DNA from: Oligoflexales bacterium
GTDB taxonomy: Bacteria; Bdellovibrionota_B; Oligoflexia; Oligoflexales; Bog-1112
Direction of reading: 5' to 3'
NCBI GenBank assembly: GCA_045105515.1
Contig: JBGCDR010000128.1
Coordinates: 1-16,665, forward strand
Length of the DNA stretch: 16,665 nucleotides
Shown: one piece after another, positions 1,508 through 16,469 of the stretch
Numbering within the stretch: position 1 is the stretch's first letter
How the letters are laid out: every line of letters starts with the position of its first letter
Notes under the pieces: generated by a model
Told to the model about the DNA's origin: nothing
Seen by the model: only the letters and a program-made list of their open reading frames with translations
Database searches by the model: none
Position numbers and translations under genes: made by a program

Positions 1508-2029
1508 GTGAAAGATAGAGCAAGCAATATGATTGCATTAAGCAAGAAAAATGCAGGAAAATTACCCGACTATACAACAGCTACCGAGGTTGCGCGCGTA
1601 TTCGAACTCGATCCGAGAACGGTGAGAAAAAGGATAGCCGAGCTCGAAGCAAAGCACAGCGAGGGTAACAATAAGTTCTTTGATACAGCCGAAATCCTCA
1701 GGTTCACTTTGCTCAATAGCCCGACCATGCAGGACAACGTTGAACTTGACTTAACTCAAGAAAGGGCAAAGCACTACCGGACCCTGACCAAGAAAACTGA
1801 GATCGAAATCGAAAAGCTCTCGGACAAGTACATGCTGGTTGGGGATGTTGAGGAAAACATCAAAGGCAAGTTTATGAAATTCAGGCAAAAGCTCCTTATC
1901 ATTCCAGGGAAAGTTGGGAAGGAAGTTTTGAACGAAACTGATTTAAGAAACGTCAAAGACATATTGAAAGATGCTATCGAAGAGGCCTTGGTTGAATTAG
2001 CAACAGGCAGCGAAGATGATGGAATTTAA
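1508..2029 (+). CDS. terS: Terminase small subunit, Nu1/DUF1441-like
   Basis: N-terminal winged HTH (TATEVARVFELDPRTVRKRI) followed by coiled coil (LTQERAKH...EIEIEKL). Overlaps the start of terL. Start could be GTG 1508 or ATG 1529. Confidence 0.85.
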   Translation: MKDRASNMIALSKKNAGKLPDYTTATEVARVFELDPRTVRKRIAELEAKHSEGNNKFFDTAEILRFTLLNSPTMQDNVELDLTQERAKHYRTLTKKTEIEIEKLSDKYMLVGDVEENIKGKFMKFRQKLLIIPGKVGKEVLNETDLRNVKDILKDAIEEALVELATGSEDDGI

Positions 2030-3941
2030 TGAGCTACTGAGAAGAAAAACTAAAAAAAGGTTCTCCTCTTTTGATTCACTCTTAGCACCACCACCTAAGC
2101 TCACAGTGTCAGAGGATGCAGCTAGGCATAGGAATATTTCATTAGAGGAATCCGCAAAGCCTGGCAAATGGGTTAGCTGGCCTTTTCAAATCGAAATGCA
2201 AAACGTCTATAACGAAAAAGGCGTACAGCTTGCTGTCTATATGACCGCATGTCAGGTAAGTAAGACCGTTCAGGAGCTAAACCTGATCAGCTACTTCATC
2301 AAGTATGAAAACGGCGGCATCAACTTTATGCTACCAACAAAAACCATGGCGGAGGACTATTCACAGGTTCGTTTTGATTCTATGGTCCGTGATTCCCCTG
2401 CACTCGCAAAGATCCTACCTCCTACAAGGTCAAAGGGAAATAAGACGCTCTTTAAAAAATGGGTAGGTGGCTATATACGATTTATCGGATCTGAGAACGC
2501 CAACGACGTCTGTTCCTTCGCGACTGGAAAGGTCATTATAGACGAGGCAGATCGCTGCAGCTTGGTCGTTCGTAACTCCAAAGGAGAGATCGAGGGCAAC
2601 ACTTTACAGCTATTATTTAAGCGTATGTCCACCTTCGATGATAAATTTGTCCTGATGGCATCGACTCCCACGACCGTTGAAACTTCAATCACTTGGGAGT
2701 ATTTTCAAAAGTCTGATCAAAGGCACCCTCATATACCCTGTCCTCACTGCGGTTATTATCAGTTCCTAGACTGGAATAATTTCACTTGGCAAGGAAAAAA
2801 TCCCAATGATTTTAATACCGTTTTTTCTGACGATTTAGACTCCTTGCTAGATTCCTTCTGTTATGCCTGTCAAAGCTGCAACAAAACTTTTAAAGACTCT
2901 GAGCTTCCCCTCATGCCCGATAAATTAGAGGTAAAATGGCATAAGCATAATCCAAAAGGCCGCTTCCCAGGCTTTCATATCAATCAGTTTTATACAAACG
3001 CATGGAAGGGTCTGTTTGAAGAGTACTTATCCTGTGGGCAAAACCAAATCAAGAGGATGTCTTTTTGGAATACGGTTCTAGGGCTTCCCTTTAGCTTTGA
3101 AGGTATCAAGGTTCCCGATCATAGCATCCTGATGGAAAGACCTAAGTACTACGAGAGAAGTTTCGTTCCAAGTCCAGCTTGCGTACTCCTTGCAGGCTGC
3201 GATGTCCAAGATGACCGGGTTGAGATCGTGGTAGCAGCAGTTAACAGAAGGCAAACCTACGTCGTAGACCATGCGGTTTTTTATGGCAATCCTGCAAACC
3301 CTGAGTCTGAATGCTGGGAGAACCTTAGGGACTACGTGTATAAGTCATGGCAGACAGAAAGTGGCCAGCAACTTTATATTCTGGCGGCAGGGATAGACTC
3401 AAGACACCGCAAGGACACAGTAGTACGTTTTGCCAAGAAAAATAGGGTTTTTATCCCGGTTACGGGCTCCCCAAGTGTATGGGACATGCAGCTTCTAAGC
3501 CCGCGCAAGGCTGAGGTTAACCAAAATGGCAGGTGGTTTGAAATTGATGTCCTGCGCTTTCCCTTGGGCGTAAACTTGCTTAAGATGGACCTGTATGGTC
3601 GTTTAAACCTCTCTCAAACGAAGAAGCAACTCCGTGACAACGAATACCCCTCTGACTGGATACACTTTCCTAAAGACCTCTCTGAGGGATTCTACAAGCA
3701 GCTTACCGGCGAGGTCTTGGAGGTCAACGAAGACGCTAGAGGAAAGACCAAGAAAAATTGGCGTAAGCAGTACACGAACGTAGAGATCCTCGACTGCATG
3801 GTTTATATCCTGGGCATTTACCTCATTAAGTCTCTGAATGACTGGTCGGATGCAAGATGGGGAGCGGAAGAGGCTAAGATAGGCCTTGGCAAAAGCAAGG
3901 AATCTGAGCAATCGAGTCCGATTATCGGGTCGATGATTTAA
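2016..3941 (+). CDS. terL: Terminase large subunit, lambda GpA family
   Basis: 641 aa. PGKW..WPFQ adenine-binding region, Walker A-like ACQVSKT, Walker B VIIDEADR, motif III ASTPT, Zn pairs CPHC/CQSC, GFHIN, nuclease motifs AGCDVQDDRVE, GIDS and EILDCMVY. Confidence 0.95.
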   Translation: MMEFNELLRRKTKKRFSSFDSLLAPPPKLTVSEDAARHRNISLEESAKPGKWVSWPFQIEMQNVYNEKGVQLAVYMTACQVSKTVQELNLISYFIKYENGGINFMLPTKTMAEDYSQVRFDSMVRDSPALAKILPPTRSKGNKTLFKKWVGGYIRFIGSENANDVCSFATGKVIIDEADRCSLVVRNSKGEIEGNTLQLLFKRMSTFDDKFVLMASTPTTVETSITWEYFQKSDQRHPHIPCPHCGYYQFLDWNNFTWQGKNPNDFNTVFSDDLDSLLDSFCYACQSCNKTFKDSELPLMPDKLEVKWHKHNPKGRFPGFHINQFYTNAWKGLFEEYLSCGQNQIKRMSFWNTVLGLPFSFEGIKVPDHSILMERPKYYERSFVPSPACVLLAGCDVQDDRVEIVVAAVNRRQTYVVDHAVFYGNPANPESECWENLRDYVYKSWQTESGQQLYILAAGIDSRHRKDTVVRFAKKNRVFIPVTGSPSVWDMQLLSPRKAEVNQNGRWFEIDVLRFPLGVNLLKMDLYGRLNLSQTKKQLRDNEYPSDWIHFPKDLSEGFYKQLTGEVLEVNEDARGKTKKNWRKQYTNVEILDCMVYILGIYLIKSLNDWSDARWGAEEAKIGLGKSKESEQSSPIIGSMI

Positions 3942-4588
3942 GCATGTAGATCATTATTTTGAACCTTACTTAAAGTGCGAGTAGATATCATTTGTATCTG
4001 ATTCCATTCGCAAGCATCTATATTTTTAATTGCATCACGGGGCGTCCTAAATTTTTCTTTTAACTCAGGAAGATAACGAGCCACTGTGTCATTAAGGCAT
4101 GTCCATAAAATCTCACATACTTCGTCAACCTCATCAAAATCATTATCTACATGCCCTCTCACAATTATTTGATCCTTTGACTTCATAAATTCTAGTTGAA
4201 CTTTGCTCTTTGCTACTTCTAAATCAGGTTCATCCATAAGGAGCATTATGCATTTTTTTTTGTACATTCGGAAAGACCTACATATAGATTTTATAAAATC
4301 AAATAATAAAACCTTAGGCATTTCTTTCATAATGTTGTTGTCATAATAAACTTCAAAACTTTCTTCAGATTCGCTTTGTATGCCAAATACTTTTTGTACA
4401 TTATTTTCTTGATAATTTTTAAGATTGCTCGCTATTTCGCTCTCATAATCTAATATTTCTAGCCTCTCTGCTCTTGTCTTCTCAGCCTCTCTAATTTTAA
4501 TCGCTTCCTGAGACTTTCTTCTAGTTTCTTGTGCTTTTCGCTGCCTAAGCTGCCTTTTTCTATGTCTATCACTTATTTTTTTTTTCAT
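3938..4588 (-). CDS. Hypothetical protein, basic N-terminal helix, paralogue of 4744..5385
   Basis: 216 aa with GAGGA SD. Aligns by eye over most of its length with the neighbouring ORF. Confidence 0.8.
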   Translation of the reverse strand: MKKKISDRHRKRQLRQRKAQETRRKSQEAIKIREAEKTRAERLEILDYESEIASNLKNYQENNVQKVFGIQSESEESFEVYYDNNIMKEMPKVLLFDFIKSICRSFRMYKKKCIMLLMDEPDLEVAKSKVQLEFMKSKDQIIVRGHVDNDFDEVDEVCEILWTCLNDTVARYLPELKEKFRTPRDAIKNIDACEWNQIQMISTRTLSKVQNNDLHA

Positions 4589-4722
4589 AGCTTCCTCTTA
4601 AATTATAAAGCTAACTCGAATAGTAAGCTCATGATGAAATGCATCACCAGCTTTATCGAAATACTCTAATACACTCAGGGGTGGCAGACTTTACCTCCCC
4701 TTTTGAAATACCACTTCATAGG

Positions 4723-4746
4723 AGGGTGTCGTGAAACGCGACGTCA
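4723..4746. repeat. Copy 1 of a TCGTGAAA-centred imperfect palindrome/hairpin
   Basis: AGGGTGTCGTGAAA (4723-4736) is identical to 5558-5571. GTCGTG-AAA-CGCGAC can fold. Confidence 0.8.
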
Positions 4747-5385
4747 TCTCAAAGTCCCTGCAACTTGCTCAGTGGCAGTGGTGTCGCCTAGATTGATATC
4801 GATGCTATCTGCGGCCTTCATGACTTTATCGAGTTGGCCATCTAACTCAGAACAACGCATATGGTAAATATTTCTGAATGCATCTCTTAATGAGTCACTG
4901 ATATCGGCAAGGTCGAGAGGGTTTTCGCCTATATTCCCTGCTGTGACCACGTTATCATTGGCATCGACAAAAATCTCTAAACTCACATCGCCATCCATTT
5001 TAGGAACCTCTAATTTGCCCTTTTCATACAGTAGGATTTTCTTTTGAGTATGAGAACATGCTTCATATAAGGCTACTATTAGCTTAAAAACAGCCTCTAT
5101 CGAGATTTTCTCTGCATGCTTATCATAAAAGTTTTCACAAACTGAGTCCTCATCGGCGAGCATGTACACTTTGTATATCGGAACCGAATTTTCATACTGT
5201 CCTTTGGCGTTTAGGTATATTTCCTTCTCGAACGTCAGAATATCATCTTGGAATCGACTAAGCTTTTCTTGGAGCCTCTTCTCTTCCCTAATTTTTATCA
5301 CTGCTTGAGCATTTTTTCTCGCTTCCTCAGCTTTCTGCTGCTTGCGCTGCATGCTTCGTTGTCTGCTATTAATCTTTTTTTTCAT
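4744..5385 (-). CDS. Hypothetical protein, basic N-terminal helix, paralogue of 3938..4588
   Basis: 213 aa with AGGA SD. Shared pattern MKKKI..R.R...RQ.KA.E.R...Q..IKIRE and IL.(F/Y)E.EI..N.K...EN.V. Confidence 0.8.
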   Translation of the reverse strand: MKKKINSRQRSMQRKQQKAEEARKNAQAVIKIREEKRLQEKLSRFQDDILTFEKEIYLNAKGQYENSVPIYKVYMLADEDSVCENFYDKHAEKISIEAVFKLIVALYEACSHTQKKILLYEKGKLEVPKMDGDVSLEIFVDANDNVVTAGNIGENPLDLADISDSLRDAFRNIYHMRCSELDGQLDKVMKAADSIDINLGDTTATEQVAGTLR

Positions 5386-5557: not shown

Positions 5558-5610
5558 AGGGTGTCGTGAAATACGACGACCTTTAGACGACCTCGTGAAA
5601 CGCGGGGTCA
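5558..5610. repeat. Copies 2 and 3 of the TCGTGAAA-centred imperfect palindrome/hairpin
   Basis: GTCGTG-AAA-TACGAC (5563-5577) and GACCTCGTG-AAA-CGCGGGGTC (5589-5609). Confidence 0.8.
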
Positions 5611-8600
5611 TCCTTTACCCCAATGCCTTGAGAAGTGACCGTCGACTCCCATCTTTACACCAGGGCAGTAATGCTTAGCCGCCCCTATCATTAGCTGGTC
5701 TACTCGCTTAGCCTCTTCCTCAAAGTTTTTCTCATCCACTTGCACGACAAACTCGTCATGCACAACACACGGAACCTCAAAGCCGTTTCGAGTGAGGTTA
5801 AACCAGGCGCTGTTTGCAATATCAGAGAGCAAGCCTTGGAATGGAGTGTTGTTAAACTCTGTGTAAGAGCAGTTAGCTCTAATCCTCCCTGACCTTGGGA
5901 GCACAGCAGTAAGAGAGTTTTTAAGAGCTTTTACAAACTGAATGTTAGGCTTCCTAGCATCCACGCTCTTTTTATAGGCTTTAAATTTATCGTATTTGGC
6001 TACAACAGCAGCAGCATTTTCCCAGGCCCAGTCTACCTCTTTTTCACCATATTCTCTGTCGGTCGTTGCTGTTCCCGAATAACCTTCAAGCATCCTGAAG
6101 AATCCGTGTAGGGCCGCGCCATTTGGGAAGTTGCAAGGGTGCTCTATTAATAGAAGCTTCTTAGCAAGCTGCTTATCCGACTCTTCAAGGTATAGCTTCA
6201 TCTCAGGAAAGGACTGGAGCCATGCTTCTTTAATAGCCTTCGCTTGCTGCTCGTTAATCGTGACTCCATAGGAATCCCTGGCGAAATCAACCAGTCTCTT
6301 AAACCCCAATCCACCAGGCAAACCAAAGTTGGCGATTTTCCCGTATTGGCGTTCCCCTTTAGAGACCTGATCCACAGGCTTACCAAGAAACCTGGAAGCC
6401 GTGAGTTTATGCACATCCTGGCCCTGGTTAATCGCATCACTAAGCTTACTAAAGCCATACCTATCAAGGCATACCTGGGCAAGGGTCACTAGTTCGGCTG
6501 AGCTATAATCAGCTATATAAAGGGTTTTCCCCTCACTTGCTATAAGCTGGGCTCTCATATCCACGAGGTCCTTTTCCCTTGGGATCTGCTGGAGGTTAGG
6601 CTTACTCATAGCATTACGCCCAGTATTTTTGAGGATACTTATATGCGGGTGAATCCTCGTCACCTTCTCAAGGGGGGTAACACTCATCTTAAGGAGCTTA
6701 TTGTTGTGCTGGCGTTCTTGCCAAAGGTCAAGGAACTCAATGCCTTTAAATGGCTTTAAAGCTGCCTTTTTCTGGCTGATCATCTCCTTGCCTGTCACAC
6801 CATCTAAGAACCTAGGGAAGCGTATATTCTGTTCAGCTTCTATATTTTCCATAGCCTTATTAAAACGCTCTTTTTGCCCCTTGCCGCCTGCATAGTCGTA
6901 TTTTTCAAGCAGGGTTTGATCGATCTGTTCAAGGCGATTTCTGAGAATAGCACCGTTTTCCTTAGCTTTTTCTGTATCAACTCTAAAGCCTAAATTAGAG
7001 GTATTAAAGGCCGCTAGGGCATCACCAACCTGCACAAAATGGCTGAGGAGTTTGGATTCATCGAGCCCATGCTTGGCAACAATGTTCTTAGCCTCAAACT
7101 CCAACTTGCTCCATAAGAAATAAGTCGCAATAGTATCGAAGGCATTGTAGTGAAAATAGGCGGCTGGTGCCTCTTTTATGCGACCAAGGTAATCACCATA
7201 GGAAGTCCTTACCTCCTTACCATCAACCTCTGCTTCTTTTGGGAGAGTAATATCAAGTTTGTCTTTGCACAGGGTTGCTAAGGTGTACTTGCCCTTTTTA
7301 TTCTCTGCATCTCCCTCAGTTGCAAGATTGATAAGTCTTGCTAAAAGCCAGGTATCCAGGCCTTTTTTCTTAGCTGCCTGCTCTAATCCCCACTGCCTAT
7401 TGTGGATCTGATTACTCAAGGTCATAAAGTCAAAGGCAATATTGTGAGCAATCCAGTTTGAGTGCTCATGGGTCTTTGCAAACTCTTTTAGCTGATGTAC
7501 CTCGATGAAAAATAGCTCCTTACCATTAAACGCTGAAGCTAGGACTATCTGAGGGATGTACCCTCCTTCGATTAGCTCCGTCTCTACATCGAAGGAAAAA
7601 TTCTTTCCTAAGTTCTCACCTGACCACCATTTGGAGGCGTAGACCTTACCCTTAAGTTTATAAATAGGTAGATCCTTTAAGGGAGTATCCCAGTTTTCCG
7701 CCGGACCCTCTGGACCCTCATCAATAATAAGGGTCCGGTCTATTTCCCCTGTATTTACATTATCTTTAAGCTCTTCAGAAGCAATTATGGACCCTTTTAA
7801 CCCTCTTTTAGAGGAGCCAGAATTTTTTCCCGAAATTTTTTTTGCATCCGAATTCTCAAGAGGGTCTAAAAACCCCGAAAGGGTCCGGCGGTCTTTGTAA
7901 GATTCTGTTTCTATTTCTGAATTCGCTCGGACCCTTTTTACCCCAAGGGTCCGGCAGGGTCCATCGGAGGGTCCGGCTGGAAGATTAGAGGAAGAAAGCC
8001 TGAATAAATAGTCTCTCGAATTCCCTCCCACCTTGCCTGGAACGGTGTCTACAGTAATTTCAACTTCGTCTTCGTCCTCTGTGATATAGGGGAAGGCCTT
8101 CCCTTTCATCTTTCTGAGGATGTTTCCCACCTTCGTATTCTTACCTTGTGGCCGAGGCGTATCACGGAAAAACTTCGGATTGATCTCCTCAGCTTTTGCC
8201 CTCCATTGTTTTGCCGGTGCTGCTTCAGTCTCAGTTGCTCCAGTACGGTAAAGCTCCTCACTTCCGACATCGAGCATAAGAGAAATATCTGGACTTAGCT
8301 TGCCGAGAATATCTCTGTAGTTTGATAGGAATCCGTTAAATCCATTGACCTTCAATATGCCGTTCACGAAAGCTGCCCACTTTGGGTACTTAGGAAAGTG
8401 CACATTTTCTTTAGGGCAGCCTGCTTTTTGCCAATTTAGGACAAGACCTAGGAGTTCTGAGAGAACTGCATTTCTATTCTGCTTCACGTAAGCTAATGGG
8501 TTTGCGTCCTTTAGCTTTCTTTCATGAGCAAGCTCTATGGTAATCGATCGAGTCAGCAGGTCATCACAGATAACCCCATCATTTAATGTTGCAAAAAACT

Positions 8601-10356
8601 GAGCATTATTCCGTCTTTTGAACATCTCACTTTGGCCCAGGATTCGAGTCTCAATAAATTCTTCGGTTAAGATTCCTTCAAGACTTGAGCTAGTTATTGG
8701 TTGTGCCGTGCGAATGTTATCCAAACAAATAAAGTCACTATTTTTAGAGGATGCACCTATCCTTTTCTCAAGCTCAAGATCATCATGGGTATAGGTAACC
8801 CGTGAATAGCTAGCTCCACTTGCTACATAAGAGCATGTTTTTGCAAGAGTAGATTTACCAAGGTTAACCTTATTGCCTAAAACAGTTCCGAGAGGGTGTT
8901 CACCTACGAACTGCTCGCGCAAGAAAACGCAGGTCAGTAGAAGGCCAAGGGCATTTGAGAACTGAGAATCATCCTTAAACGGAAAGTCTAATACTTCCCG
9001 CAGATGCTCCATAGAAAAAGAGGGGGTGAGCTTGGGACCGTCGTAATATATGCGAGAGTCTTTATCATAACCTCGGTCATAAATCAGTTTATTCCCTGAA
9101 ATAACAGGACATTTGGTATAAAGAGTGATCTTATCAAGATTGGCATATTTTTCCATTTTGGTCAGAAAAGCGCTACCTATTTCACTGGGTATTAACTGAT
9201 GATTGATAGACATATCGAAGCCAATAGCTTTTTTAGAGGCCTTAATAAAATCTATTTTATCTGACATATATGCAGCGAAATCTTTACCATCAGGAATCCT
9301 ATTTAATTGCTCACGATTGATATAAGCTAAGTTGTAGGTTCCATCTTCGATGTAAATCCGATCCTTAGAATCAAGGCACCTACCAACCTTCGTATATAGT
9401 TCTCTTGTTGAGTCTACATGCGGGAGCCAAAAAATCTTTGCAAACTTGCTTTCCTCTTTTGGCATCTGGCTGTAGAAAGCCTTTTTGATCTTAGTAAAAA
9501 GCCCCTTGATATCTTTAAAGCTGCTACTTGGGTAAGACTTAGCAAGAGCTTTCAAAAGCTGAGCCAGTTCAAACTCTTCAAGGAAAATTGCACTCCTTAA
9601 GTATTTGTCGAGGCAGTCCCTGCCAATCTCTTTTGGTATGTCCTCGTGGTCAGCCTTGCCAAATTCCCAAAAAGGCTTATCACTTCGGCGTTTTAATTCC
9701 TCGTATCCTTTTTTAATCAGGAAATCATCGGCTCCAATCTTTTCATCACCAAGCCTCAAGTCAACAATTTTTACTTCTGCACCCATCTGGTGTATGGTGC
9801 GCACAAATTCGAGGATACCCTTATTGACCTGCGGGTTAGTGAAAAAATCGCTATCCGGATAGACGGTTACTGGCCTATTTTCCATGGGAATTCCACCCCA
9901 TCCTTCGCCTAGTCCTTCGCTATCTTTTTCCTTCCAATTGCGGCACCCAGGAAAGCCGATGCATACGGCATCCTCACGATCACGTTTTTTTTCACAGGAC
10001 TCATTAAAAGCTTCAAGTTCAGCCCTGAGCTTAGCGACTTTCTTCTCACCCTCTGTGACCTTTAACTCGACGTCTTCATCTTTAAGATCAGTAGCATCAT
10101 CCTTATTAAAATATGAGGTGAGGGAAGAGCCTTTTTCCTGAGCGTACTTAACGTCACCTACTGGCTTCTCAAGCTTAAGCCTTCCCCCTACTTCGTTTCC
10201 GTCTAGATCGTGATAAGGAAAATAAATCCCCTCAACATCAAAGTTAAAGCGCGCCTTTACATCTTCAGCGCTCAGACTCTTGATACCAAAAGCTTCAACA
10301 TCTTCCTTACTTAATCCACTCTGCTCTAGTAATTTAATATGTTTATCAAGAATCAT
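5608..10356 (-). CDS. Fused primase (Toprim, DUF3854-like) / P-loop helicase-like / 3'-5' exonuclease / family A DNA polymerase
   Basis: Toprim: GIYFPY, KYAQ, VTEGEKK, YPDSD, GADDFL. NTPase: NLGKST, ICLDN, FATLN. Exo I/II/III: FDVET, AHNIAFD, YNAFD. PolA: TGR...PNLQQIP, motif A ADYSSAEL, motif B RQYGKIANFG, NTPFQG, motif C VHDE. The ORF track starts at 10434; ATG 10356 (MILDK, 1582 aa) is preferred because it couples to the upstream stop. Confidence 0.92.
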   Translation of the reverse strand: MILDKHIKLLEQSGLSKEDVEAFGIKSLSAEDVKARFNFDVEGIYFPYHDLDGNEVGGRLKLEKPVGDVKYAQEKGSSLTSYFNKDDATDLKDEDVELKVTEGEKKVAKLRAELEAFNESCEKKRDREDAVCIGFPGCRNWKEKDSEGLGEGWGGIPMENRPVTVYPDSDFFTNPQVNKGILEFVRTIHQMGAEVKIVDLRLGDEKIGADDFLIKKGYEELKRRSDKPFWEFGKADHEDIPKEIGRDCLDKYLRSAIFLEEFELAQLLKALAKSYPSSSFKDIKGLFTKIKKAFYSQMPKEESKFAKIFWLPHVDSTRELYTKVGRCLDSKDRIYIEDGTYNLAYINREQLNRIPDGKDFAAYMSDKIDFIKASKKAIGFDMSINHQLIPSEIGSAFLTKMEKYANLDKITLYTKCPVISGNKLIYDRGYDKDSRIYYDGPKLTPSFSMEHLREVLDFPFKDDSQFSNALGLLLTCVFLREQFVGEHPLGTVLGNKVNLGKSTLAKTCSYVASGASYSRVTYTHDDLELEKRIGASSKNSDFICLDNIRTAQPITSSSLEGILTEEFIETRILGQSEMFKRRNNAQFFATLNDGVICDDLLTRSITIELAHERKLKDANPLAYVKQNRNAVLSELLGLVLNWQKAGCPKENVHFPKYPKWAAFVNGILKVNGFNGFLSNYRDILGKLSPDISLMLDVGSEELYRTGATETEAAPAKQWRAKAEEINPKFFRDTPRPQGKNTKVGNILRKMKGKAFPYITEDEDEVEITVDTVPGKVGGNSRDYLFRLSSSNLPAGPSDGPCRTLGVKRVRANSEIETESYKDRRTLSGFLDPLENSDAKKISGKNSGSSKRGLKGSIIASEELKDNVNTGEIDRTLIIDEGPEGPAENWDTPLKDLPIYKLKGKVYASKWWSGENLGKNFSFDVETELIEGGYIPQIVLASAFNGKELFFIEVHQLKEFAKTHEHSNWIAHNIAFDFMTLSNQIHNRQWGLEQAAKKKGLDTWLLARLINLATEGDAENKKGKYTLATLCKDKLDITLPKEAEVDGKEVRTSYGDYLGRIKEAPAAYFHYNAFDTIATYFLWSKLEFEAKNIVAKHGLDESKLLSHFVQVGDALAAFNTSNLGFRVDTEKAKENGAILRNRLEQIDQTLLEKYDYAGGKGQKERFNKAMENIEAEQNIRFPRFLDGVTGKEMISQKKAALKPFKGIEFLDLWQERQHNNKLLKMSVTPLEKVTRIHPHISILKNTGRNAMSKPNLQQIPREKDLVDMRAQLIASEGKTLYIADYSSAELVTLAQVCLDRYGFSKLSDAINQGQDVHKLTASRFLGKPVDQVSKGERQYGKIANFGLPGGLGFKRLVDFARDSYGVTINEQQAKAIKEAWLQSFPEMKLYLEESDKQLAKKLLLIEHPCNFPNGAALHGFFRMLEGYSGTATTDREYGEKEVDWAWENAAAVVAKYDKFKAYKKSVDARKPNIQFVKALKNSLTAVLPRSGRIRANCSYTEFNNTPFQGLLSDIANSAWFNLTRNGFEVPCVVHDEFVVQVDEKNFEEEAKRVDQLMIGAAKHYCPGVKMGVDGHFSRHWGKG
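7700..7977. repeat. Cluster of AGGGTCC(GGC) repeats in both orientations, candidate intragenic replication origin
   Basis: Nine exact AGGGTCC/GGACCCT copies start at 7703, 7712, 7730, 7789, 7880, 7929, 7946, 7956 and 7968, plus AGGGTCT at 7861, interspersed with A/T tracts. The repeats are certain; the origin function is inferred. Confidence 0.75.
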
Positions 10357-10699
10357 ACTCAACCTTTGCTCTCTCTTCTGCAAGCCCATAAGGCCCACAG
10401 ATATGCATCTCAATGTAAAAGTGTGGTGTACCAAGTGATCTATAAGCTGAGATAAGACCCTTTTTACCCTTCAGCTCGTAGATGGATTTTGCGATGATTT
10501 TAATTATTTCGATAAACTGTGATTCTAAGTCGCGAGAAATACAAAGGTGCTCAGAAGACAAAAATTTATTTACGCTTTTTAGTAGCTTTCTTAGCCACTT
10601 CAAAGTATAAACCTGCCTCATAAACTGATTTTTAGCTGGTTTGTAAAAGAATCCAGCTACGCCTGTTTGCACCAGGCGTTTCTCCAATTCTACTATCAT
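10346..10699 (-). CDS. Hypothetical protein (early region)
   Basis: 117 aa with GAGAGGA SD. Co-directional and tightly packed between the Cro-like gene and the replicase. Confidence 0.65.
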   Translation of the reverse strand: MIVELEKRLVQTGVAGFFYKPAKNQFMRQVYTLKWLRKLLKSVNKFLSSEHLCISRDLESQFIEIIKIIAKSIYELKGKKGLISAYRSLGTPHFYIEMHICGPYGLAEERAKVEYDS

Positions 10700-10716
10700 A
10701 ATATCCTCTCATTAAA

Positions 10717-12354: not shown

Positions 12355-13956
12355 ATGATTAGATGCCCAGTTCTCATTCGTCTTTTTATAGGTTTGTATA
12401 TTTGTTTTTCATACGAAAAATCTTCAGCAAACTCGAATTTATCTGATTTAGAATCGAAAGCTAAGTTAATATTAGATAAAAATGAACCCACTCTCATCAA
12501 CACAGTGTCGGGAGTATTTGGTTCTTTTGACCCTTTAGATGCTGATTATACTAAAAATATTAGGGTTATGAGATTATTGTATTCAACTCCTGTTGAAAAG
12601 GATGAAAATGGTAAACTTAGCTCTTCTATTTTAGATAGATTTGAGTACAACGAAGTCTTAAAAACTCTAACCTTTCAACTAAAGTCAGGCTTAAATTTTA
12701 GCGATGGTTCAAGTATAACATTAGATGATTTGAAACTGTCCATCCTAAGAATGCTCCACGAGCGACCTACATTTGATCCCCTTAAATATATTGAAGGTAT
12801 TGATAAATGGCAGGCTCACGGGAAAAAATTAGACACCTTACCTTCTGGGTTATCGTTGAATGAGAAGACTAGAACGTTGACAATCAAGTTATCTCAACAT
12901 GTAAACCACCCTTTTGAACGTTTTACGATGGAAATATTCTCCGTAATTCCCAAAAAATGTATTGATACAAAGTCAGCGAAGATGATTTGCGCAACACCGC
13001 CTTTTTCAGGAGATTATACACTTGAAGAGAATGATTCTCCATTTTTAAAATTTAGAAAAAGAAGCTCAAATAAAAATATTCCTGACAGGTTAAATATAGT
13101 ATTCATGTCTCCAGTTAGAGTTATCAAGTATTTAGAAAATTTTAGATCGAATCATGTAATCTTATCGAATGAAATAGATATTCCTCCAGAACATCGCTTC
13201 TTTATAAAAAGTAAATTTAGGGACAATAGTATACCTGAAGTAAGGTTTTTTGCATTGGTTCTGAATAAACGAACCAAAACATTTGAGAATAAAAGAGTAA
13301 GACAATATTTTGCTAAAGAGTACCGATCAACTCTTAATAAATTATTTGGCAGGGAAGATGGAAGCATCTTCACACAAATAAGTCCTGGCTATATATCATT
13401 AGGAGATCTTTATGATAAAGCCGGGAATTTTTCAAAAAAAGAAGAGCAAGAGATAAGAAATCATTTAAAAACTCATCCCCCAAAATGGATGAAAAATAGC
13501 TTCGCAAACCATGACCCTTTCCAAATATATCTTAAAGAAACATTAAAAAGGTTGGGTATTAGTGAATCTCCAATCCTTCCAGAAAAAGATAGAAAAAAAG
13601 AGATGGAACTTTGGAAAAAGGGGGAATTTGATATTAGACCAACCCACTCTGGCTTGGATACTAATGACCCAACTTTAGACCTTAAAATGTTATTCACAAA
13701 AAACATGCATTACTTTTTGATTGACTTACAGGATGACATCCACCTGCAACAAATGCTTGGCTCAATAAATCATACTCAGGTAAAGAAAATGGATATAAAT
13801 CTACTGAAAAAAATAAATCAATATCTGTTTGAAGAGTCAGTATTTTCAATTGTCGCAAATTACTCGATAGGTCAATACACGCTGAAGGATAGCAAATTAA
13901 AATTTACAAATGTATATAAGACCAACTCAGCACATTATTTCATCAATACTCCATGA
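12355..13956 (+). CDS. Family 5 (OppA/DppA-like) extracellular solute-binding protein, orphan
   Basis: 533 aa with a signal-like N-terminus. FDPLDA, LLYSTPV, TLTFQLKSGLNFSDGSSITLDDL (family 5 signature region) and PPFSGDY (GTGPY-like). No permease or ATPase adjacent. Confidence 0.88.
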   Translation: MIRCPVLIRLFIGLYICFSYEKSSANSNLSDLESKAKLILDKNEPTLINTVSGVFGSFDPLDADYTKNIRVMRLLYSTPVEKDENGKLSSSILDRFEYNEVLKTLTFQLKSGLNFSDGSSITLDDLKLSILRMLHERPTFDPLKYIEGIDKWQAHGKKLDTLPSGLSLNEKTRTLTIKLSQHVNHPFERFTMEIFSVIPKKCIDTKSAKMICATPPFSGDYTLEENDSPFLKFRKRSSNKNIPDRLNIVFMSPVRVIKYLENFRSNHVILSNEIDIPPEHRFFIKSKFRDNSIPEVRFFALVLNKRTKTFENKRVRQYFAKEYRSTLNKLFGREDGSIFTQISPGYISLGDLYDKAGNFSKKEEQEIRNHLKTHPPKWMKNSFANHDPFQIYLKETLKRLGISESPILPEKDRKKEMELWKKGEFDIRPTHSGLDTNDPTLDLKMLFTKNMHYFLIDLQDDIHLQQMLGSINHTQVKKMDINLLKKINQYLFEESVFSIVANYSIGQYTLKDSKLKFTNVYKTNSAHYFINTP

Positions 13957-14846: not shown

Positions 14847-16469
14847 ATGTACGGTAAACTAACCCCCAAAAAAACTATTATTCTAATTGCGATTATTCTT
14901 CTTTTAATCTCATATATTGGAATCGATTACCATTACAAAACTAGATCCAAGGACATACTTTTAAGTACCATCCACGCCTCGGAAGATTTAATCAAAGTAA
15001 ATAATTTTTTGGAGTTTTCGTCTAACCTGCATTCAGCTATGATAAATCAGCCCATAATAAAATCGACGTCACTTTTTGACGGAGATTACCGAAGACTGTT
15101 TCACTATGGTGAAGATTATCGTATAGAAAGACTCGATATCAACTTTTCAGAAGATAAAGTTCTTATACTTAATGAAGGAATCCTAAAGTACGCATTAGTT
15201 TATAATTTCCCTACAAAATCAAACTTTATTCTAGTTTGCTCGTTTTATGATGATAACCGATATATAATCCTGTTCTCACTTTTTTCAGCCATATTTTTAT
15301 CATTTGGGGTTATATTTTTAGTTTGTACTCGCTTTGATATCGATAATCTAAATGCTTCTGCTGCAAAACAAGCTATTGGAATGATTTCTCTTGGTTTTCA
15401 TGAAATGAAACAATACGTGGCATTCACAAACGAACTTTTTAAGTACATTCAAAGCGGGAAAAATGATGCAATTAAAGAACAAATTTTTCTCAAAGATTAC
15501 AGGCATCTCAACATCGGTGTTGAATCTATGATGTCAATTATCAATATTAAAAATTATGAAAGTTTCGAAAATAAAAAGGAAGTTACAAAAAAAAATAATG
15601 CTGTTGAATTAAACGAAATTGTAAATAGTTGTGTCGAGTCCTACAAAAAAAAAGGCGTTAAATTTGAGTACATCCAAAATCATAAATGTCTGTTGTTGAT
15701 TAGAAAAGATGTTCTTTACGCTATAGTAGGTAATTTGATTAAAAATGCTTTTTTCTTTTCAAATAGGTTAGTTTGGGTAACTACGGAAGAAAAGGAAAAT
15801 TCACTTGCCATATCTGTTGCAAATACTGGCAAAAAAATACCGAAAAAGAAAAGAAAAGAAATTTTAAAACCTGGAATCGCTTTAAATGGCCAGTCTGGTT
15901 TAGGGTTACATATATGTAATTTATGGTGCGAAAAAATCAATGCTCAAATTCTCTTAGAGAGCACATCAGTTGCAACAGAATTTAAAATAGTATTCCCTAA
16001 AAAGTTGATTTTAAAAGAGCCAAACGTCTTGTGCGCTACTGAAGATATACCGAATTTTTCTGAAGTGAAAAGCGATGTTCAAATTATCAAGAAATCGATT
16101 GATTTAGCTGTTATTGATGATATTGAAACATTTAGGATTGGCTTAAAATCTGAATTAACCGAACTTGGATTTAATGTATTGACCTTTGAAGATATAGACA
16201 TGTTCCTAGATTCTATACAGGAAGGAAAAGTCAATTTTGATTGTGTTATCGTTGATAGACATGGAAAAGGGTTCGACGCTGCTAAAGATCGTTTCCCGGA
16301 ATCTTGCAAATATTATAATTTCAAAGGAAAAATAATATTGTACTCATCAAATGTAGAAGAACATCAATTGGAATACTACAAAAGTCTAGGCTTTGACAGC
16401 ACAGTTTCAAAAAGTGTTTCAGTTGATTGGAAGAATGAGATACACTCGATTTTGAAATGTGGTAAATAA
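14847..16469 (+). CDS. Membrane-bound hybrid sensor histidine kinase with C-terminal receiver domain
   Basis: 540 aa. Two TM helices flank a ~110 aa extracytoplasmic domain. H-box GFHEMKQ, N-box GNLIKNA, G1-like ANTGKKI, G2 SGLGL. Receiver VIDD...IVDRH...LYSS...VSK. Confidence 0.92.
   Translation: MYGKLTPKKTIILIAIILLLISYIGIDYHYKTRSKDILLSTIHASEDLIKVNNFLEFSSNLHSAMINQPIIKSTSLFDGDYRRLFHYGEDYRIERLDINFSEDKVLILNEGILKYALVYNFPTKSNFILVCSFYDDNRYIILFSLFSAIFLSFGVIFLVCTRFDIDNLNASAAKQAIGMISLGFHEMKQYVAFTNELFKYIQSGKNDAIKEQIFLKDYRHLNIGVESMMSIINIKNYESFENKKEVTKKNNAVELNEIVNSCVESYKKKGVKFEYIQNHKCLLLIRKDVLYAIVGNLIKNAFFFSNRLVWVTTEEKENSLAISVANTGKKIPKKKRKEILKPGIALNGQSGLGLHICNLWCEKINAQILLESTSVATEFKIVFPKKLILKEPNVLCATEDIPNFSEVKSDVQIIKKSIDLAVIDDIETFRIGLKSELTELGFNVLTFEDIDMFLDSIQEGKVNFDCVIVDRHGKGFDAAKDRFPESCKYYNFKGKIILYSSNVEEHQLEYYKSLGFDSTVSKSVSVDWKNEIHSILKCGK

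Follow-up and report, generated by a model that had tools for sequence, protein, structure and literature searches.

Introduction

Two cases in which helicase, primase and polymerase are united in one chain are listed in a survey (PMC4889955) by Kazlauskas, Krupovic and Venclovas from 2016. The first, gp55 of Lactococcus phage 1706, joins a superfamily 3 (SF3) helicase to an archaeo-eukaryotic primase (AEP) plus a DNA polymerase of family B (PolB), and the other is Pas55 of Actinoplanes phage phiAsp2, catalogued as an SF3 helicase, a DnaG primase and a family A DNA polymerase (PolA). The pairing of DnaG with SF3 is described there as the less common one. Here, we analyze a protein of this second kind, P0002, encoded by the open reading frame (ORF) at 5608-10356 on the minus strand of contig JBGCDR010000128.1 from an Oligoflexales bacterium. 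The window, meaning the whole stretch of DNA that was analyzed, is the entire 16,665-bp contig, and its source is a metagenome-assembled genome in 461 contigs (GCA_045105515.1). Judged by the sequence and the predicted fold of its domains, the gene encodes a genuine single-chain primase, helicase, proofreading nuclease and DNA polymerase. This architecture is already catalogued and is rare; new here are a lineage that the polymerase tree presents as independently fused, and its unusual polymerase subfamily.

The PolB/AEP version, GP55, was shown to work in 2025 and was called unprecedented. Like P0002, this "four-in-one replicase" holds helicase, primase, exonuclease and polymerase in one chain, and all four activities and de novo DNA synthesis in vitro from nucleoside triphosphates (NTPs) and deoxynucleoside triphosphates (dNTPs) are described for it (PMC12205980). 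GP55 differs from P0002 in its AEP primase, family B polymerase, N-terminal helicase and dimeric state. The PolA/DnaG version has been noticed in passing only, and a biochemical study of a DnaG-SF3-PolA chain was not found in the literature searched.

Other described proteins share parts of this plan. Prex of Plasmodium combines, like P0002, a Toprim primase, a helicase and an exonuclease-PolA (exo-PolA) in one polypeptide (PMC10201439), and is reported to be processed (PMC7689252). Its helicase is T7/Twinkle-like, whereas that of P0002 has an SF3 fold, so that the expected polarity and the encircled strand would be opposite. The Aquificae-like PolA cluster is described as fused to Toprim-helicase in apicoplasts, to AEP in some bacteria and to a helicase in some phages (PMC10201439). 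Hot-spring Aquificae viruses encode a 1,606-residue DUF927-helicase-exo-PolA polyprotein (PMC7689252). This protein, OS3173 Pol of the Thermocrinis Octopus Spring virus, is almost as long as P0002 and carries N-terminal primase/helicase motifs, a 3'-5' exonuclease and an Aquificae/apicoplast-like PolA; by its description it is set apart from P0002 through its DUF927/COG5519 helicase, a Toprim or DUF3854 domain not being reported, and through its origin in viruses of hyperthermophiles (PMC7689252). P0002 has no DUF927 match at E<=1. P4 gp-alpha, also compared by description, resembles P0002 in placing a DnaG-type primase N-terminal to a D5-family SF3 helicase, and carries a C-terminal origin-binding winged helix (PMC4889955). 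P0002 departs from the P4 type by lacking the zinc ribbon and by its attached polymerase, whereas P0049, a more distant match, has a zinc ribbon. The unfused relatives of P0002, of about 780-915 residues, are similar in size to the P4 gp-alpha type.

Four modules in a single reading frame

The frame is open on the minus strand, on which all features of the gene lie, from a TTG at 10434. It comprises 1,582 uninterrupted codons plus the stop codon, counted from an ATG at 10356 and ending with the stop at 5608-5610. Between this ATG and the end of the upstream ORF (10346-10699) there is an overlap of 11 bases. The start agrees in alignment with the N-termini of homologues, and also fits P0161, a 92%-identical fragment from another assembly whose N-terminus reads MILDKH. 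P0161, P0162 and P0163 are fragments from other assemblies (ENA), 92-93% identical to residues 1-578, 1017-1255 and 1267-1582. Their substitutions are almost all conservative, which indicates that a close variant of the element exists elsewhere.

An initial annotation, made from the sequence letters alone, had placed four modules in this order within the ORF. Pfam, motifs and predicted folds agree with it, and all the motifs it named were found (GKST at 500-503, FICLDN at 542-547, ATLN at 589-592, Exo I-III, and PolA motifs A, B and C). Among the PHROGs, "DNA polymerase" spans residues 929-1581, and three unknown or primase/polymerase-annotated families span 455-756. In NCBIfam, models named "bifunctional 3'-5' exonuclease/DNA polymerase" match below threshold. 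Six full-length relatives of 32-38% identity share every catalytic residue of all four modules, which argues that the module pattern is more than chance.

Residues 1-295 (9472-10356) are predicted to fold as a DnaG-type primase RNA-polymerase domain with an N-terminal subdomain, a Toprim and a helical subdomain. Pfam recognizes DUF3854, a Toprim family, at residues 95-219 (9700-10074; E 1.1e-5, 25.8 bits against a cutoff of 23), in line with the DUF3854-like primase of the earlier description. The acidic Toprim motifs are TEGEKK (E102, E104), PDSDFF (D168, D170) and GADDF (D210, D211). Across 30 sequences, E102, D168, D210 and Y71 are invariant and E104 and D211 nearly so, and the six full-length relatives all retain D170, K70, R59 and an FPY motif. 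The AlphaFold2 (AF2) model of residues 1-800, built from 30 aligned relatives, has a predicted local distance difference test score (pLDDT) of 88.6. In structural comparisons (VIA, used for all Z scores below), residues 1 to ~290 match Aquifex DnaG (2au3, residues 117-403) with Z 16.4 and a root-mean-square deviation (rmsd) of 5.2 over 240 aligned residues. The same region matches the E. coli DnaG core (1eqn, Z 15.1), the T7 gp4 primase (6n9u_F, Z 15.3, rmsd 3.0 over 185 aligned) and T4 gp61 (Z 13.3). The similarity of the modelled fold to DnaG extends beyond the Toprim core to the entire RNA-polymerase domain, N-terminal subdomain included. At the sequence level, no PDB match to residues 1-800 was found at E<=1.

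The helicase module, residues 303-790 (7987-9450), is predicted by fold to be an SF3 helicase of the D5/P4-alpha type, and is matched by PHROG 10537, 29234 and 19930. It consists of a D5N-like N-terminal part, a P-loop core and a C-terminal alpha/beta part, which may bind DNA. The Walker A motif GNKVNLGKST lies at residues 494-503 (8848-8877), with G494, G500 and K501 invariant, and the Walker B motif FICLDN at residues 542-547 (8716-8733), with D546 and N547 invariant in 30 sequences. SF3 motif C, FATLND (residues 588-593), is followed by a putative arginine finger, R603 (together 8545-8595). N592 of this motif is invariant and R603 nearly invariant in the 30 sequences, and both are invariant in the alignments of the full-length relatives. 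The closest structural match is the SaPI5 primase-helicase 7ola_C (residues 321-736; Z 14.2, 369 aligned), followed by the NrS-1 CTR (Z 13.4) and PriRep1 (Z 13.0). Monkeypox virus E5 and vaccinia D5 reach Z about 13, and the African swine fever virus PrimPol lies within Z 12-13.4; the matched chains include 6lrb_D (Z 13.4), 8xj7_A (Z 13.4) and 8apm_A (Z 12.9). Foldseek on the helicase region gives E 4e-9. Folds and motifs narrow the SF3/AAA+-like nucleoside triphosphatase (NTPase) of the initial annotation to an SF3 helicase of D5 type. The chains of T7 gp4 and Twinkle align to residues 1-230 at rmsd about 3, with a whole-chain rmsd of 17-23. They superpose well on the primase part only, which upholds the earlier view that the fusion is independent of Prex.

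Between the helicase and the exonuclease lies a low-complexity linker, residues 791-905 (7642-7986), close to where the initial annotation had put one (~7620-8000). Its content of G, S, P, E, D, K, R, N, T and Q is 71%, against 59% for the whole protein. The alignment is rich in gaps here, the relatives differing in both length and sequence, and in the AF2 model the pLDDT falls below 50 at residues 790-800.

The 3'-5' proofreading exonuclease, residues 906-1100 (7057-7641), is assigned by its motifs, namely Exo I FSFDVETE at 920-927 (D923, E925), Exo II HNIAFDF (N972, D976) and Exo III YNAFD (Y1070, D1074), and its relatives match Pfam DNA_pol_A_exo1. The family A polymerase follows at residues 1101-1582 (5611-7056), with Pfam DNA_pol_A recognized from about residue 1191 (E 3.3e-36, 125.5 bits against a cutoff of 34.3). 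It carries D1283 and the steric-gate Glu E1288 in motif A, R1336, K1340 and F1344 in motif B, and H1533, D1534 and E1535 in motif C. The model of both domains together (residues 906-1582) shows a Klenow-like fold and has a pLDDT of 94.4 and a predicted template modelling score (pTM) of 0.92. Its best match is Aquifex pyrophilus Pol I (8jrb_A; Z 34.6, rmsd 3.1, 535 aligned, 24% identity), and next comes the Plasmodium apicoplast polymerase (Z 33.3), which makes the polymerase of Prex one of the nearest relatives of known structure. The Pol I enzymes of Mycobacterium, Bacillus and Thermus follow at Z 30-32 (Bst ~31). A PDB sequence search gives the same ranking (8jrb 3.8e-24, apicoplast polymerase about 1e-22, Klenow and Bst about 1e-15).

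Two hallmarks set this polymerase apart. Motif B, ERQYGKIANFGLPGG (6310-6354), has Gly (residue 1348) where nearly all PolAs carry Tyr, at position B4, Y766 of E. coli. The Tyr at B4 is tied to dNTP/NTP discrimination, and a Phe there is called "unique" to the DpoZ clusters (PMC10201439). The second hallmark is a helical fingers insertion of ~80 residues (about 1402-1480; 5917-6153) between motif B and the QG motif. The distance between these motifs is ~170 residues in the fused family and some stand-alone relatives, against ~92 in canonical PolAs. The extra residues are predicted as four helices (model positions 507-574), and the 8jrb alignment covers only 535 of the 677 residues of the polymerase-half model. 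Motif B NFGLPGG and the insertion are also seen in stand-alone exo-PolAs of 650-780 residues (P0167-P0174 and others). The combination of both hallmarks seems to fit none of the 19 published PolA clusters.

Relatives and rarity of the fusion

An exhaustive profile search with residues 1-800 among representative sequences returned 9,808 proteins at E<=1e-3, and the best 150 were examined. A PolA module was present in nine of these best 150, and eight of the nine have the same module order. These eight belong to divergent metagenomic clusters of 31-37% identity: P0011, P0014, P0015, P0016 and P0017 cover the full length, P0023 and P0025 begin only at residue ~205, and in P0018 the motifs have decayed. 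The ninth, P0115, bears a PolA but differs at the N-terminus. Of the other proteins, about 35, with 624-964 residues, combine Toprim and helicase in unfused form, and the remainder match the NTPase region only. Each fused cluster has one or two members, on contigs of 9-51 kb, with P0018 on 483 kb. In P0018 (1,373 residues), Exo I-III and PolA motifs A and C are degenerate, whereas the primase and helicase motifs are intact; it is probably a decaying or repurposed chromosomal copy.

A word-indexed homologue search with the whole protein gave eight partial matches, six of them PolA. A search for longer proteins, which is weak evidence on rarity, returned P0015 and P0285 only. P0285 (1,436 residues) is arranged differently, its single chain joining a Toprim_3/Toprim_4 domain to the same SF3 NTPase family, to DNA_pol_A_exo1 and to a PolA of canonical type with motif B NFGLLYG. 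Among 94 other genomes of the same order, six carry a relative of the primase-helicase, and in one (G052) a polymerase is attached. Scans by two short peptide patterns recovered three loci in IMG/VR and 14 in GTDB genomes, none of them fused. Among 50,697 phage records the fused form occurs in two, both phiAsp2. A reading of the architecture as undescribed did not hold, given Pas55 in PMC4889955. The architecture is nonetheless uncommon, with two of 50,697 phage records and nine of the best 150 of 9,808 matches. In phiCbK-type phages, considered as fused relatives and rejected, the similarity is confined to the NTPase, which forms the end of a PolA-free protein of 1,218 residues.

Pas55 (NC_005885, 43304-47551, 1,415 residues) is the closest described counterpart. 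It has the same order of DnaG-type primase, SF3 helicase, exonuclease-like region and PolA, and the same Pfam pair, DUF3854 and DNA_pol_A. It is collinear with P0002 by BLASTP, with 25% identity over 324 columns in the NTPase (E 3e-21), and is matched by the P0002-family profiles for Toprim (1e-12) and NTPase (8.5e-28). Its PolA is distant: the polymerase profile scores 1.3e-5, weaker than for the host's own Pol I (6e-33), and unlike P0002 it has fingers of canonical length and a Tyr-Gly motif B, GHGWNYG. Another difference is the origin of Pas55 in an actinophage genome of lytic type.

The nearest relatives of Pas55, in Streptomyces Woodruffvirus phages, are adjacent "DNA primase" and "DNA polymerase I" genes. 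Streptomyces phages YDN12 and Xkcd426 and the locus L007 of a Planctomycetaceae metagenome-assembled genome have a DUF3854-type "DNA primase" gene (709-732 residues) with, immediately after it, an exo-PolA gene (643-720 residues), in the same order as in P0002 but as two proteins. Unfused adjacent genes in the same order are the usual sign that the fused parts work together. The L007 polymerase has a degenerate Exo I and HDQ as motif C.

One fusion or several

A quick LG+G4 tree of 53 exo-PolA sequences (588 columns) has long branches, and its conclusions are to be retested. In it, the eight fused relatives and one 681-residue protein, possibly a fragment as it comes from a 2.4-kb contig, form one starred clade. 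This clade is nested in a larger one of 30 rows, likewise starred, made up of stand-alone exo-PolAs, the split L007 polymerase among them. The 30-row clade shares motif B NFG(L/F)PGG, whereas NFGLIYG is the form in Pol I, in cyanobacterial enzymes of Aquifex-like type and in the solved structures. In this quick tree, the PolA of P0002 falls in a sister clade to cyanobacterial "bifunctional exo/pol" proteins. P0115 lies in another subclade. The PolA of Pas55 is outside, on a long branch, with Streptomyces phage polymerases in a separate starred clade. A homologous primase-helicase joined to a PolA from another clade makes more than one fusion event probable. On this tree, the Pas55 fusion is probably independent of that in the P0002 lineage, and genes for a primase-SF3-helicase and for a PolA, frequently found side by side, seem to have been fused at least two or three times.

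Alternative explanations

The gene could be an artefact of assembly or sequencing error, or of a chimeric contig, a reading that is already close to refuted. It would draw on the metagenomic origin of the genome, with its 461 contigs, and on a branch of the assembly graph at 5774-5851, in a conserved PolA stretch shared with a more abundant relative. At this branch a 599-base contig whose depth is 2-3 times higher shares 70 bases, with four differences, and then diverges; its higher depth points to a more abundant related polymerase gene in the same samples. Yet the depths of the two contigs that meet there match in all three runs (12.2/36.3/37.9 versus 13/35.4/32.7-39.5), and Logan contigs of three runs reproduce 5782-10700 exactly, with no other letters and no gaps, linker included. 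The three runs belong to one study, possibly the source of the window, and represent an independent assembly, not independent samples. The read-level check of the linker proposed by the initial annotation found neither stop nor frameshift in the contigs of this single study. The fusion moreover occurs in eight divergent clusters of different sources and in the metagenome contigs L021 and L022, which again speaks against an artefact.

If the chain is genuine, it might still be a polyprotein, with cleavage in the linker that yields a primase-helicase (~790 residues) and an exo-polymerase (~680 residues), as with Prex, the fusion then serving co-expression or stoichiometry only. The linker looks disordered, is of low complexity and varies in length, in relatives the halves are encoded by two neighbouring genes, exo-PolAs that stand alone (650-780 residues) are common in this subfamily, and proteolytic processing of Prex is described (PMC7689252). 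We nevertheless regard cleavage as unlikely. Family searches found no protease domain in the ORF or the neighbouring ORFs, the alignment offers no conserved linker sequence as a possible cleavage site, and in GP55 the domains are functionally interdependent (PMC12205980). Somewhat less probable still is that the Toprim domain does not prime, acting as an inactive scaffold or as a nicking or initiator domain, so that the host would prime and the protein would be a helicase-polymerase only. In favour of this, DUF3854 is formally of unknown function, and the plasmid to which one DUF3854 Rep belongs is discussed as rolling-circle (PMC10079941). The apparent absence of a zinc-binding domain and the splitting of the Toprim at residue ~205 in two relatives, both taken up below, also favour it. 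Against it stand the match to the whole DnaG RNA-polymerase fold (Z 16.4, 240 residues) and the invariance of E102, D168, D210 and Y71 in 30 sequences and of K70, R59 and FPY in the six full-length relatives.

Several observations weigh against P0002 as a complete, self-priming replicase. A zinc-binding domain was not found, with no Pfam zinc-ribbon match in P0002 at E<=1. Residues 1-300 contain four Cys, of which C138 is the sole conserved one, and no Cys/His cluster. The structural alignments begin past the zinc domain, at DnaG residues 117-131 and at gp4 residue 75, and together these points indicate a DnaG-type catalytic core without a zinc finger. In DnaG and T7 gp4, the zinc-binding domain is needed for template-directed priming. 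P0002 also has no match to the helicase Pfam families DUF5906, D5_N and Pox_D5 at E<=1, and the relatives P0012, P0021 and P0024 match DUF5906 below the cutoff only. In motif B, NFGLPGG, the conserved Tyr is replaced by Gly. The degenerate exonuclease and polymerase motifs of P0018 indicate that copies can decay, and an unbroken chain is not obligatory, as the Toprim is divided between two ORFs in two relatives.

In G052:C177 (L092, 728-1498 and 1495 onward), from the same order, the Toprim is split at about residue 205 with an ATGA stop/start overlap. P0023 and P0025, which belong to different subclades, begin at the same point of ~205. The gene may have split here naturally more than once, or the relatives may share a site prone to frameshifts. 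In G013:C28, from the same family, a primase frame (288 residues, 134193-134915) and a helicase frame (540 residues, 42% identity, 136399-137886) lie 1.5 kb apart, as if by insertion, and the contig ends directly after.

Genomic context

Left of the gene, the contig encodes a small terminase and a large terminase of lambda gpA type (2016-3941). The latter is followed immediately by convergent unknown genes at 3938-4588 and 4744-5385 (minus strand), where a portal gene would be expected. The order in this terminase region (1508-5385) is unusual for a lambda-like head, and the element could be satellite-like or a rearranged prophage. To the right of ~11400 the DNA is host-like, with an SBP_bac_5 solute-binding protein (12355-13956) and a hybrid histidine kinase with HATPase and receiver domains (14847-16469). 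The guanine-cytosine content falls from 44% in the gene to 33% right of ~11400, the genome having 38%, and tetranucleotide use is atypical for the genome in the left part and typical in the right part. Single Logan contigs cross the phage/host-like junction. The window contains no integrase or tRNA, and no obvious attachment (att) repeat is seen at the ~11400 junction. Five small or unknown flanking ORFs have no family match even at E<=1, and a search for iterons or an origin near the gene, promoters and terminators gave nothing above chance.

The relative on L021 has a richer neighbourhood. Its fused gene sits in a classic temperate-phage replication module, with a repressor-like regulator, a RecE/RecT-like protein, a single-stranded DNA-binding protein, RusA, ribonucleotide reductase, MazG and thymidylate synthase, and with the fused gene itself between RusA and ribonucleotide reductase. 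The RecE/RecT-like gene (5988-7421) encodes 477 residues, with an exonuclease VIII/RecE-like family at 15-328 and a RecT-like annealing family at 319-476, and is a possible exonuclease-annealase fusion.

Proposed replication mechanism and significance

We consider it likely that the gene encodes the replicase of a temperate-phage-like element adjoining host-like DNA, with four modules in one chain: a DnaG-type core, an SF3 helicase, a tether and a proofreading PolA. In such a replicase, the SF3 modules would form a ring that moves 3'->5' on the leading-strand template, as expected from the families of D5, E1 and P4 alpha. The ring would open the DNA of the element, possibly with the C-terminal part of the helicase module recognizing the origin. 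The N-terminal DnaG-type cores would lay RNA primers on the exposed strands, and the PolAs, on flexible tethers of ~115 residues, would extend and proofread them. The element would in this way supply its own priming, unwinding and synthesis rather than use those of the host. Two precedents favour this reading: in cyanobacteria, plasmid replication proteins include DUF3854-helicase proteins (PMC10079941), and GP55, an analogous helicase-primase-PolB chain, makes DNA de novo in vitro (PMC12205980). From domains and folds we infer all the enzymatic activities, the formation of a ring, the polarity of the helicase, the binding of the origin and the persistence of the chain in one piece. A self-priming polymerase is likewise what we infer, with the zinc-binding domain, which was not found, as a caveat.

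The Gly of motif B and the fingers insertion may be adaptations for taking over RNA primers in cis or for working on a helicase, and the altered motif B of this PolA subfamily may bear on sugar selection or fidelity. A broader proposal, which we regard as possible rather than probable, is that the lineage represents a compact, mesophilic and self-sufficient one-chain replisome. It would combine zinc-finger-free priming, an SF3 ring and a PolA subfamily that seems to lie outside the 19 published clusters. If this were true, the protein, supplied with NTPs and dNTPs, would need no partner to initiate and elongate DNA on plain single-stranded or double-stranded templates.

Single-chain replicases show how little the copying of DNA needs, and are candidates for primer-free isothermal amplification. 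To the known cases, the window adds what is probably a second, independently fused lineage, with eight divergent clusters from samples of moderate temperature. All catalytic motifs of P0002 are intact and its predicted structures are of high confidence, and the fused clusters form a set of natural variants for cloning. For phage biology, the locus indicates that a full replication enzyme can be part of the gene complement of a phage-like element whose terminase is of lambda type.

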